From a virus, in the IMG/VR virus record IMGVR_UViG_3300045988_134824, positions 72,744 through 136,743 of that record: a DNA stretch of 64,000 nucleotides, one strand, 5' to 3'. Positions 31,286 through 33,495 of the stretch are shown piece by piece. The position numbers were made by a program, and so were the translations under genes. Numbering within the stretch: the stretch's first letter is position 1; each line of letters starts with the position of its first letter. The notes beneath the pieces were generated by a model, which saw only the letters and a program-made list of their open reading frames with translations, searched no databases and was not told the DNA's origin.

Positions 31286-32746
31286 ATGATTGAAGTAATT
31301 GGAACAGTGGTACCAGTGGTTATTGCGGTAGGTGGCGTAGGAGCTATTATCGGTAGCGGTTATGTCAAAGCAAGTCCAGATAAAGCTTATATTATTTCTG
31401 GACTTAGAAAGACACCTAAGACATTAATTGGTAAGGCAGGGTTAAAAATCCCATTCTTTGAAAAAGCAGATCATCTTAATCTTGAGTTAATTCCAATTGA
31501 TGTTAAGACATCAAGTTCTGTGCCTACAGCAGATTATATCAATATCAATGTAGATGCAGCGGTCAATGTAAAGGTTAGCAGTAATCCAGAAAGATTAAAA
31601 CTTGCAGCAGAAAACTTCTTAAATAAGCCAGTAGGCGATATTGGACAGGTCGCAAGAGAAGTCCTTGAAGGTAATATGCGAGAGATCGTTGGAAAGATGA
31701 GTCTCGAAGAAATGGTTTCCGATCGTCAGAAATTCGCACAGCTTGTTACAGAAAATGCAAAACCAGACCTTGCTGCAATGGGATTAGATATTATCAGTTT
31801 TAATGTGCAGAATTTTATGGATGATAATGATGTTATTGAAAATCTTGGTGTAGATAATGTTGTTAAAATTCAGAAGAAGGCTGCGATTTCCAGAGCTGAA
31901 AGCGAAAGAGATATTGAAAAAGCAAAAGCAATGGCTGAAAAAGAAGCGAATGATGCAAGAGTCGAGTCAGAAACAGCGATTGCAGAAAAGAATAATAATC
32001 TGGAGATTAAAAAATCTGAACTTGAGAAGATTTCAAAGGCAAAGAAGGCTGAGGCAGATGCAGCATACAAGATTCAGGAAGAAAAATCACGTAAAGAAAT
32101 TGAAGTTGTAACTGCGGATGCTAATATTATGCGTCAGGAAAAAGAAATTGAATTGAAACGCAAAGACGTTGAGGTAACAGAGCAGACATTAGATGCACAG
32201 ATCAAGAAACAGGCAGAGGCTGAAAGATATGCTTCTCAGCAGAAAGCAGATGCAGATTTATATAAGAGACAGAAAGAGTCAGAAGCAAATAAATATGCTA
32301 AAGAAAAAGAAGCTGAATCTACAAAATATGCTATGGAACAGGAAGCTGAAGGTATCCGAGCAAAAGGTGTAGCAGAAGCTGAGGCGATTAAAGCAAAAGG
32401 TATTGCTGAAGCAGAAGCTATTGAGAAGAAAGCTGAAGCTATGAAACAGATGGGTAAAGCTTCTATCGTAGAAATGATGTGCCAGATGTTCCCAGAAGCA
32501 GTTAAAAATGCAGCTGCGCCATTAGGTAATGTAGGAAGCATTACTATGTATGGAGAAGGAAATACAACAAAATTAACAAAAGATATTATGAATGTTGTGA
32601 ATCAGGTATCAGATGGTGTTAAAGGATCTACAGGTGTTGATCTTGCAAAGATGTTGAAAGATTTTGTTTCTGAAGATAAAGAAGTAGAGTTTACAGATAA
32701 TGAAAGTCTTGGAACACCAGAGCCAGCAGATTACCGTGAGTTCTAA
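31286..32746 (+). CDS. flotillin-like SPFH/band-7 domain membrane protein
   Basis: N-terminal TM helix, SPFH-like core, then long EA-repeat coiled coil (AEAEAIKAKGIAEAEAI) and C-terminal MYGEG..GVDLAKML typical of bacterial flotillins. Confidence 0.65.
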   Translation: MIEVIGTVVPVVIAVGGVGAIIGSGYVKASPDKAYIISGLRKTPKTLIGKAGLKIPFFEKADHLNLELIPIDVKTSSSVPTADYININVDAAVNVKVSSNPERLKLAAENFLNKPVGDIGQVAREVLEGNMREIVGKMSLEEMVSDRQKFAQLVTENAKPDLAAMGLDIISFNVQNFMDDNDVIENLGVDNVVKIQKKAAISRAESERDIEKAKAMAEKEANDARVESETAIAEKNNNLEIKKSELEKISKAKKAEADAAYKIQEEKSRKEIEVVTADANIMRQEKEIELKRKDVEVTEQTLDAQIKKQAEAERYASQQKADADLYKRQKESEANKYAKEKEAESTKYAMEQEAEGIRAKGVAEAEAIKAKGIAEAEAIEKKAEAMKQMGKASIVEMMCQMFPEAVKNAAAPLGNVGSITMYGEGNTTKLTKDIMNVVNQVSDGVKGSTGVDLAKMLKDFVSEDKEVEFTDNESLGTPEPADYREF

Positions 32747-32760
32747 TAGGAGAAATTATT

Positions 32761-33495
32761 ATGGCAATTATTATTATTTGTGTAATTGTAGCAATTATCG
32801 CATATTTACAATTTACTAAAAACGGAAAGCAGATTAAAAATGTGGCATCTGGAACAGTTACAGAAAAGATCAAAGAAAATGCAATGACTCCAGAGGGAGC
32901 AAGAGCCAGATATAATACTGCAATTAAAGAGAAACAAGACTTTTATAAGAAAACAATGGGTACATACACAACGGTAGCTGGTAGATTGGCAACAATGGAA
33001 GATGATCTCAAAGAAACAAAAGAAGAAATTTCTAAAACCGAGGCAATGATCAACCAGTACATTGATAATCATGATGATAAAAAAGCAATGTATTATGCTC
33101 AAAAATTAGCCACGCTAAAGGCACAGAAATCAGTGTACGAAAAGAAAATCCCAGAGTTGCAAACCACAAAGGATAAACAGGAAGAAATTAAAAACCAGGC
33201 ATATGATCAGCTCATTAAGTTAAAAGGCGAAAAAGATACTGTAGTTCTCCAGATGGAGGCAGATCAGCAGATTGCAGAATTACAGAAAAATTTAGATCAA
33301 TATAATAGTTCAAATGTTGCTCAGGAAGGTTTGGAAGAGGTTCGAGAAGGAGCAAAGAAACTTAGCGAACAAGCCAAAGGCGTTGCTATTGCGTATGAAT
33401 CTAGTGCAGAAACATTAGATTATCGTATGGAGCAGGATGAACGACAGCAGGAAGCTCAGGCTATCTTAGATCAGATGAAAAACGCTCGTAAATAG
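32761..33495 (+). CDS. membrane-anchored coiled-coil protein, possibly PspA/IM30-like
   Basis: N-terminal TM (AIIIICVIVAIIAYL) then long heptad coiled coil with PspA-like ARARYNTAIKEK / YAQKLATLKAQ segments. Confidence 0.35.
   Translation: MAIIIICVIVAIIAYLQFTKNGKQIKNVASGTVTEKIKENAMTPEGARARYNTAIKEKQDFYKKTMGTYTTVAGRLATMEDDLKETKEEISKTEAMINQYIDNHDDKKAMYYAQKLATLKAQKSVYEKKIPELQTTKDKQEEIKNQAYDQLIKLKGEKDTVVLQMEADQQIAELQKNLDQYNSSNVAQEGLEEVREGAKKLSEQAKGVAIAYESSAETLDYRMEQDERQQEAQAILDQMKNARK

Follow-up and report, generated by a model that had tools for sequence, protein, structure and literature searches.

Two adjacent genes of a gut phage

The DNA considered here is a stretch of 64,000 nucleotides (nt) from the IMG/VR virus record IMGVR_UViG_3300045988_134824 (positions 72,744 to 136,743), referred to in its full length as ‘the window’. 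Near its middle lie, one behind the other, a gene for a flotillin and a gene for a transmembrane (TM)-anchored relative of PspA, a protein named for its response to phage stress. An initial annotation, made from the sequence, had placed plus-strand open reading frames (ORFs) of 486 and 244 amino acids (aa) here, 15 nt apart. Both are present at those positions in an operon-like arrangement (Table 1): the second ATG (32761) starts 15 nt past the flotillin stop codon, the gap proper is 14 nt, each gene has a strong Shine–Dalgarno site in front of it, and a simple terminator scan found no terminator between the genes.

The window has a GC content of ~33 per cent and carries nearly all of its genes on the plus strand, as a large phage-like genome would. 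PHROG matches in it comprise an anti-restriction protein, several anti-repressors, integrase-like proteins, a primase, a DnaB-like helicase, a RecJ-like exonuclease, and a PolIII-alpha-type polymerase, and genes identical to those of the window are found on many IMG/VR viral contigs of 90–166 kb. Given these replication and anti-repressor matches and the identical genes on viral contigs, the window is phage DNA. Its phage is known from metagenomes only; megablast of the window from 29 to 36 kb against GenBank phages gave no match and no near-identical record. The two genes sit in the accessory/early arm, surrounded by anti-repressor, NAD-salvage or radical-SAM, and replication genes, and neither protein is a structural or tail component, an identity that would have spoken against the initial annotation.

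The first gene encodes an SPFH/band-7 flotillin with an EA-rich coiled coil, as initially annotated. Its product is matched by Pfam Band_7 (PF01145; residues 50–207, 7.8e-24, 85 bits against a cutoff of 23.6) and Flot (PF15975; residues ~355–427, 1.5e-6, 28.7 bits against a cutoff of 27), and a PDB search aligned residues 29–455 colinearly with the cryo-electron microscopy chains of human flotillin-1/2 (E 4e-54). The match to the NCBIfam FloT model NF058507 is full-length and colinear (residues 47–461 to 54–476 of 477; 8e-89), with a score of 298.8 bits that lies below the 700-bit equivalog cutoff of the model, short of an equivalog-level match to Bacillus subtilis FloT; judged by these scores, the protein is a FloT-type family member and not a FloT orthologue. 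Residues 4–25 are hydrophobic (Kyte–Doolittle 2.26) and followed by K28, K33, R41, and K42, the pattern of an N-terminal membrane anchor, and E, A, and K make up 53 per cent of residues 201–400, the coiled coil preceding the Flot domain.

Beyond near-identical phage copies, the nearest flotillins are a few at 80–86 per cent identity, two of which were traced to phage-like contigs. Cellular flotillins at ~70 per cent identity occur in Longibaculum muris, Coprobacillus cateniformis, and Lachnospiraceae; because of this identity to the Longibaculum and Coprobacillus proteins, the phage gene was in all likelihood acquired from a bacterial, Erysipelotrichales-like host, and a present host of Erysipelotrichales type is pointed to. 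In the Longibaculum and Coprobacillus loci (L092, L093, and L094, 4746–7458), a PadR-HAAS regulator pair and an 80-aa ORF precede the flotillin gene and a radical-SAM gene follows it, the latter being unrelated to the radical-SAM gene of the phage (no BLAST match). PadR-HAAS is a partner of PSP systems, an envelope-stress signalling pair (Ravi et al. 2024, PMC11237479). No NfeD-type partner was seen beside the flotillin in these host loci, and Pfam matched no NfeD/YuaF-type partner among the seven neighbouring proteins scanned around the phage flotillin.

The second protein had been annotated as a PspA/IM30-like, TM-anchored coiled coil, a description that holds at the level of its family and fails for the window sequence taken alone. 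By itself, the protein matches only PHROG 33389 (function unknown), with no match in Pfam (PF04012 included) or the PDB. Phmmer of the protein and hmmsearch of a 12-sequence profile against the PDB returned noise only, so that a 94-sequence profile was needed; hhalign of the 12-sequence alignment against a single Escherichia coli PspA returned nothing, a result that a template of one sequence makes uninformative. Close relatives score 13–30 bits against PF04012 (up to 29.8; gathering threshold 33.9), their residues ~52–242 running colinearly with profile positions 29–217 of 220, and 55 of 94 diverse full-length family members match PF04012 (E<=0.01, best 6.6e-13), with the next Pfam family at 5 of 94. 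When the 94-sequence profile was searched against the PDB with hmmsearch, the top four matches were Vipp1/PspA chains (E 7e-7 to 1.2e-6; profile positions 46–205 aligned to Vipp1 27–187), with Synechocystis PspA at 2.6e-4 and tropomyosin-type or generic coiled coils at ~1e-3.

The AlphaFold2 (AF2) model of the protein (pLDDT 77.9, >90 across the hairpin) comprises a TM helix, a hairpin of helices 44–102 and 106–183, and helices 185–208 and 217–243, so that the alpha1–alpha2/3 hairpin of PspA, followed by alpha4 and alpha5, is present in the prediction. Foldseek of this model against the PDB placed Vipp1/PspA structures in all of the top eleven ranks, at TM-scores of 0.47–0.66 and E-values of just 5e-3 to 5e-2. 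The initial annotation would have yielded to a second protein lacking a PspA/ESCRT-III-like fold; the predicted hairpin and these matches speak for such a fold.

It is the N terminus that departs from PspA. Residues 1–19 are strongly hydrophobic (Kyte–Doolittle 2.9) and are followed by K20, K23, and K26, an order that under the positive-inside rule argues for an N-out/C-in topology and would leave the coiled coil in the cytoplasm. Alignments to PspA and Vipp1 begin past alpha0 (at Vipp1 residue 27 and PF04012 profile position ~29); the amphipathic alpha0 of PspA is not present, and the hydrophobic TM segment stands in its place. This segment is conserved across the family, whose 236 clusters align from residue ~3–5. 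On the family-level PF04012 matches, the 94-sequence profile, and the predicted fold, the second gene encodes a variant of the PspA/IM30 superfamily (bacterial ESCRT-III) in which a TM tether replaces the peripheral amphipathic helix. Domains of the classical Psp and Lia partners (PspBC/PspF and LiaI/LiaFSR) were not found among the neighbours of the pair.

The family was delimited by searching 1.84 billion representative proteins with a profile and consists of 236 clusters at 50 per cent identity, nearly all of them 240–260 aa long. Relatives are encoded on at least 142 IMG/VR viral contigs, and a narrow-alignment scan of 185,579 species-representative genomes found one locus, on a 38-kb contig of a metagenome-assembled genome. 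From these two counts, the PspA-like proteins form a discrete, essentially phage-restricted subfamily; the initial description of both proteins as normally cellular thus suits the flotillin and does not suit its neighbour. Distant members, namely P0226 and gp247 of Bacillus phage G, sit in ABC-ATPase/permease/PBP-OmpA clusters. A tblastn search of phages with E. coli PspA matched two gut contigs only, which are unverified.

Table 1. Features of the window in and around the flotillin and PspA-like genes (SD, Shine–Dalgarno).
Feature	Position (nt)	Strand	Evidence and remarks
689-aa protein	26870–28939		PHROG 1735 (5e-263); Pfam DUF8224 in relatives
Radical-SAM protein	29905–30867		RlmN/Cfr-like N-terminal match; PHROG 24834
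PM0253-family gene, 110 aa	30888–31220	+	PHROG 20678; conserved left boundary of cassette slot
Leader, 65 nt, SD site AAAGGAG	31221–31285	+	Common to both cassette types
FloT-type flotillin, 486 aa, ATG	31286–32746	+	Pfam, NCBIfam, and PDB matches
Spacer, 14 nt, SD site TAGGAGA	32747–32760	+	Separates flotillin and PspA-like genes
TM-anchored PspA/IM30-like protein, 244 aa, ATG	32761–33495	+	PHROG 33389, family profile, predicted fold
TM segment of PspA-like protein, residues ~2–19	32764–32817	+	Then linker, alpha1 44–102, tip 103–105, alpha2/3 106–183, alpha4 185–208, alpha5 217–243
Palindromic indel, ~60 nt	33548–33608		Between PspA-like gene and tRNA-like element
tRNA gene with interrupted anticodon arm	33626–33764	+	Rfam tRNA model end to end, 43.8 bits (gathering 29), E 3e-8
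Hairpin with flanking A-run and U-run, candidate bidirectional terminator	33768–33802		RNA fold −10.6 kcal/mol, z = −3.2
Cro/C1-type HTH_26 gene, convergent	33805–34023	−	Pfam HTH_26 1.5e-14; conserved right boundary of slot
Divergent sigma-70-like promoters	34030–34118	+ and −	Between HTH_26 gene and next plus-strand operon
ORF, 535 aa	37761–39368		Transposase PHROGs 506 and 12300 (8e-36)

Alternating cassettes in front of the PspA-like gene

The initial annotation took the two genes for a unit, which comparison with related loci does not bear out: the PspA-like gene is the conserved core, usually found behind ATPase, vWA-TerF, and TerD genes, the pair is not, and the flotillin gene is a lineage-specific cassette. 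Synteny was tabulated for 80 fetched IMG/VR loci, to which the window and some further loci were added, and three states can be told apart. In the first (31 IMG/VR loci, the window, L001, and L002), the PspA-like protein is at least 94 per cent identical to that of the window, and the order is PM0253, flotillin, PspA-like gene, HTH_26 (minus strand), and a 135-aa gene. In the second (eight IMG/VR loci, L006, L007, and L010), the PspA-like protein is ~73 per cent identical (50–61 per cent in L006 and L010), and genes for a P-type cation ATPase, a vWA-TerF-like protein, and TerD stand between PM0253 and the PspA-like gene, which is again followed by HTH_26 (minus strand) and the 135-aa gene; the flanking genes of the IMG/VR loci in this state are mostly ~85–99 per cent identical to those of the window. 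In the third (40 loci, with L008 and L009 at 38 per cent), the PspA-like protein is ~42 per cent identical and preceded by an ATPase gene and three TerD genes, and the flanks are different. The PM0253 gene lies upstream of flotillin-type and Ter-type cassettes at 83–100 per cent identity, and the HTH_26 gene follows the PspA-like gene in relatives of both types.

Each filling is held with some constancy. Of 32 fetched IMG/VR loci in the flotillin sublineage, 31 still have the flotillin. Among 79 viral TerD loci, a member of the PspA-like family lies within 3 kb in all but one (78) and is downstream on the same strand in 76; the ATPase is present in 77, vWA-TerF in 57, and flotillin in none. 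A pattern-based scan likewise found no flotillin-type contigs among the 79 TerD loci listed, and the 64-kb window contains no homologue of TerD, vWA-TerF, or the P-type ATPase.

The left-hand boundary of the exchange is sharp. The 65-nt leader, its SD site included, is nearly identical before the flotillin gene of the window and before the ATPase gene of L039, right up to the ATG. Cassette exchange starts at the start codon, and because the leader is shared in this way, the flotillin and Ter cassettes are alternative fillings of one expression slot. The right-hand recombination boundary can be placed inside the PspA-like gene, since the protein P0003, from a flotillin-type locus, switches type at residue 128/129: residues 1–128 are window-like (118/128) and residues 129–244 are those of the Ter-type protein (115/116). 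Divergence between the window protein and its Ter-type counterpart is concentrated in alpha1, with 34 of 59 residues identical there against 54 of 61 at the C terminus. The C-terminal half of the protein is thus interchangeable between cassette types, and the difference in alpha1 may reflect either adaptation to a partner or simple linkage. Because the Ter-type state (ATPase/vWA-TerF/TerD) is widespread and spans the deepest divergence, we infer that it is ancestral and that the flotillin state is derived.

Two variants of the slot deserve separate mention. L026 (7650–8010), an otherwise flotillin-type genome, has the PspA-like gene immediately behind PM0253, with the flotillin/PspA spacer kept; the flotillin seems to have been lost cleanly, which makes the genome a natural knockout that could be used for comparison. 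In L005 (8001–9080), a gene adjoining another TerD gene and a P-type ATPase gene encodes a 359-aa protein (P0017) with an N-terminal TerD domain (5e-58) fused to the PspA-like coiled coil, in replacement of the TM segment. This fusion of TerD with the PspA-like protein lends support to a physical interaction between the two.

A proposed role at the host membrane and its alternatives

It is probable, in our view, that the locus encodes a membrane-maintenance module consisting of a TM-tethered PspA-like core and a host-derived flotillin that replaces the Ter cassette. With similar confidence, the pair can be regarded as the last two cistrons of an accessory transcription unit of the phage that acts on the cytoplasmic membrane of the host. 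A role in membrane integrity is proposed on three grounds: the membrane function of PspA and Vipp1, which polymerize on membranes and stabilize or reseal them (reviewed in PMC7619361); the precedent of B. subtilis, in which the SPFH protein YdjI is required to localize PspA to the membrane (Scholz et al. 2021, PMC8581546); and the recurrence of PspA/band-7/flotillin operons in bacteria (PMC11237479). SPFH cups are also listed among the activators of PspA/LiaH (PMC7619361).

The physical interaction, expression timing, and physiological role that we envisage would be as follows. The PspA-like hairpin would polymerize while its single N-out/C-in TM helix kept it permanently at the inner face of the membrane, and the flotillin would form SPFH cups or microdomains during infection, organizing or recruiting the tethered polymer. 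The polymer would stabilize or reseal the membrane and keep the proton-motive force until programmed lysis, affording protection against the membrane traffic of the phage itself, membrane-targeting abortive-infection effectors, or competitors. Organization and recruitment would be the contribution of the upstream cassette, in the form of flotillin cups here and of the Ca2+-pump/TerD/vWA set in other lineages, the flotillin having presumably replaced an ancestral cassette of P-type cation (Ca2+-type) ATPase, vWA-TerF-like protein, and TerD behind the common leader. Superinfection exclusion, control of lysis timing, and membrane protection, the functions that the initial annotation offered for the pair, are all plausible.

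From a comparative standpoint, the natural exchange of cassettes hints strongly that flotillin scaffolds and the TerD system feed the same membrane effector, and the long-unclear function of Ter proteins would thereby gain an output that is concrete and can be tested. The exchange also suggests active maintenance or defence of host membrane integrity by large gut phages, and it provides a testable, putative functional link from flotillins and the enigmatic TerD proteins to membrane repair of ESCRT-III type in the infected cell.

Several observations weigh against a bond between the flotillin and the PspA-like protein. L026 keeps the PspA-like gene but lacks the flotillin. No PspA gene adjoins the cellular flotillin in the Longibaculum and Coprobacillus loci, from which it follows that the two genes were not captured together by the phage. 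No member of the PspA-like family lies within 6 kb of four independent phage flotillins (MT835492, the crAss-like csAssE-Sib, Vibrio phage KIT04, and the Enterococcus contig Efs 1-1-1). In a phage-like lineage (L183, 2020–6941, and L184, 2043–6962), the gene for a flotillin 80–82 per cent identical to that of the window is succeeded by genes for an RNase H-domain protein and then a P-type cation ATPase, the region examined containing no PspA-like gene; this lineage again links flotillin with the Ca2+-pump theme and not with PspA. Given L026 and these flotillins devoid of a PspA-like neighbour, the adjacency seen in the window could be circumstantial. Nor was a cultured model of the TerD/PspA-like module found among three phages considered: in the Herelleviridae phages LysYB1 and YungSlug, no PspA-like gene follows TerD and a multi-pass TerC-like protein is encoded there, and in Acinetobacter phage ME3 the family is not represented in the Ter region, a PspA/IM30 protein being annotated elsewhere in that phage.

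The main rival is exclusion of competitors, in which the module would build a sub-membrane barrier against the entry of superinfecting-phage DNA or against bacteriocins, with flotillin substituting for the Ter cassette. We regard this as unlikely, if the strongest of the alternatives. The embedding of the PspA-like gene in a TerD/vWA-TerF/ATPase cassette in most relatives would fit it, as would the function suggested for jumbo-phage Ter systems by Iyer et al. (2021, PMC7824862), who argued that phage Ter genes, including those for the sub-membrane TelA and for TerF-vWA, act against superinfecting phages, and the richness of the window in conflict genes (anti-restriction, anti-repressor). On the other side, PADLOC returned no defence model matching either protein, no classical superinfection-exclusion family was matched, and the known biochemistry of PspA is membrane stabilization. 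Exclusion and self-maintenance are compatible, and a common scaffold could serve both.

Somewhat less likely still is that the flotillin is a passenger gene (moron) in a recombination hot spot, its adjacency having no functional meaning and each protein acting independently. The exceptions listed above, namely L026 and the other phage flotillins lacking PspA-like neighbours, are what such a passenger would produce, and the locus is prone to exchange, as the recombinant P0003 and the alternation of radical-SAM and NAD-salvage cargo just upstream indicate. A passenger would not be expected, however, to replace a membrane-related cassette exactly at the start codon with leader and SD site unchanged, or to be kept in nearly every fetched locus of its sublineage; the coupling of SPFH proteins to PspA, moreover, has experimental precedent (PMC8581546) and recurs in bacterial operons (PMC11237479).

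A more ambitious version of membrane maintenance, to which we accord a similarly low probability, draws on an analogy with eukaryotic cells, in which Ca2+ triggers ESCRT-III-dependent repair of the plasma membrane. The phages might possess a self-contained ESCRT-III-type membrane-repair pathway with the TM-tethered PspA-like protein as effector and the Ca2+ module or flotillin as interchangeable front ends, serving as a counter-defence against pore-forming abortive-infection effectors (gasdermin-like, CBASS). The Ca2+ module (pump, Ca2+-binding TerD, copine-like vWA-TerF) would then sense the influx of ions through lesions. The analogy would pair an ESCRT-III-type polymer with Ca2+ proteins (P-type ATPase, TerD, and copine-like vWA of sister phages); unlike the eukaryotic system, the phages have no ALG-2, ALIX, or Vps4 homologue, and the flotillin version found in the window is without Ca2+ components. 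Membrane repair would, if this were true, join the counter-defence strategies of phages.

Control of lysis timing and a second protein unrelated to PspA are less likely than exclusion, and both are very improbable. Under membrane stress PspA upholds the proton-motive force, whose loss triggers holins; a PspA-like polymer and a flotillin, both membrane-anchored by hydropathy, could accordingly preserve that force or counter premature holin triggering in the manner of an antiholin, but no holin or endolysin gene was identified among those neighbours of the pair that were scanned, the locus belongs to the early/accessory arm beside the replication genes, and neither TerD nor a Ca2+ pump has any known link to lysis. 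That the second gene might encode a generic TM-anchored coiled coil (spanin-like or structural), its PspA likeness being compositional, is opposed by the PF04012 matches of 55 of 94 members, which run colinearly over nearly the whole length, by a profile that scores Vipp1/PspA ~1000-fold better than tropomyosin, and by a position that is not among structural or lysis genes. An i-spanin, which would have an N-in/C-out TM segment and a periplasmic coiled coil and would be encoded beside lysis genes in a phage of a diderm host, was considered separately and rejected: the positive residues following the TM segment predict a cytoplasmic coiled coil, no lysis genes were found among the neighbours scanned, and the likely host, a monoderm Firmicute, needs no spanin.

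The membrane-maintenance reading has its closest counterpart in the pspA-ydjGHI (samGHI) operon of B. subtilis, which likewise encodes an SPFH protein together with an ESCRT-III-type PspA. That operon differs in being cellular and stress-induced, with a soluble YdjI recruited by YdjG/H and a PspA that has the normal amphipathic alpha0, whereas the phage pair combines a membrane-anchored FloT-type flotillin with a PspA-like protein that has a TM segment of its own, and has no adjacent equivalents of YdjG/H. The bacterial operons described in PMC11237479 also link a flotillin with an N-terminal TM segment to a PspA homologue; they add a CesT/Tir chaperone, NfeD-like YqiJ/YuaF, and often an AAA+ ATPase, none of which was found beside the phage pair. 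The same study (Ravi et al. 2024) reports that ‘PspA and Snf7 homologs with a TM segment’ occur within operons of the ABC-ATPase/permease/PBPB-OmpA kind, an arrangement that gp243–gp250 of Bacillus phage G also show. The architecture of these homologues, an N-terminal TM segment followed by a PspA/Snf7 coiled coil, is that of the phage family, but their partners are transporter and peptidoglycan-binding proteins, not flotillin or TerD/Ca2+-ATPase. The terms ‘virus’, ‘phage genome’, and ‘TerD’ do not occur in the main text of that study (PMC11237479).

Phage-encoded ESCRT-III/PspA homologues have barely been noticed. Our literature searches found no phage flotillin study and no described phage-encoded PspA/ESCRT-III homologue beyond one sentence that mentions terD beside a pspA-like gene in the Jug (jumbo gut) phages (Sci Adv 2026, PMC12880540), and the word ‘bacteriophage’ does not occur in the 2025 ESCRT-III review (PMC7619361). 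A Ca2+-translocating P-type ATPase is encoded by Jug phages and some smaller Bacillota phages (PMC12880540). Jug phages have genomes of 360–402 kb and infect Bacteroides; the paper contains no analysis of the TM anchor, family, or linkage of the pspA-like gene, and neither flotillin (zero occurrences) nor its substitution for the Ter cassette is described in it. Compared with the Ter clusters of PMC7824862, the PspA-like gene of the sister phages follows TerD/vWA-TerF, where cultured Herelleviridae phages have a membrane effector such as TerC; in the classical (tellurite-resistance/stress) Ter clusters, TerC or TelA is used and not a PspA-like protein, and the window is without TerD, TerF, and the ATPase. 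SPFH–PspA coupling, TM-bearing PspA/Snf7 proteins, and phage Ter genes were thus already known separately. New are the phage-restricted, TM-anchored PspA subfamily, its near-obligate linkage to TerD/ATPase in gut phages, and the precise substitution of flotillin for the Ter cassette.

Other features of the region

Downstream of the PspA-like gene, the hairpin listed in Table 1, which is conserved in relatives and was not picked up by the simple terminator scan, is a candidate for closing both the unit of the pair and the converging HTH gene. The strong divergent promoters beyond that gene read TTGACA-17-TATATT on the plus strand (11/12) and TTTACA-17-TACAAT on the minus strand (10/12), each with an extended −10 TG, and the arrangement suggests that the HTH protein regulates its own gene as well as those downstream.

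Between the PspA-like gene and the hairpin lies a tRNA-like element in which 76 nt stand in place of a 17-nt anticodon arm. The insertion is kept in flotillin-type and Ter-type relatives, and ARAGORN reported no tRNA in the window or the relatives; the element could be an intron-containing tRNA, a permuted tRNA, or a tRNA-like element. The window, L012, and L041 have the palindromic indel before it (TATAAACCACAATATATAGTG...CACTATATATAGTTGTATAAAG), which L011, L014, and L039 lack, irrespective of cassette type; the indel may be a small mobile hairpin element.

Upstream of the pair, the radical-SAM gene of the window recurs in about one-third of flotillin-type relatives. In other relatives (the corresponding region of L001, L014, L016, and others), its slot holds the NAD-salvage genes for isochorismatase, NAPRTase, and NAD synthase, and because these alternate between genomes, the region is a cargo hot spot. 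The gene for the 689-aa protein, further to the left, is conserved ahead of the region in every close relative. This phage lineage also harbours mobile elements: the window has the ORF with transposase matches given in Table 1, and the relative L006 carries an IS605 OrfB/Cas12f-like TnpB gene.

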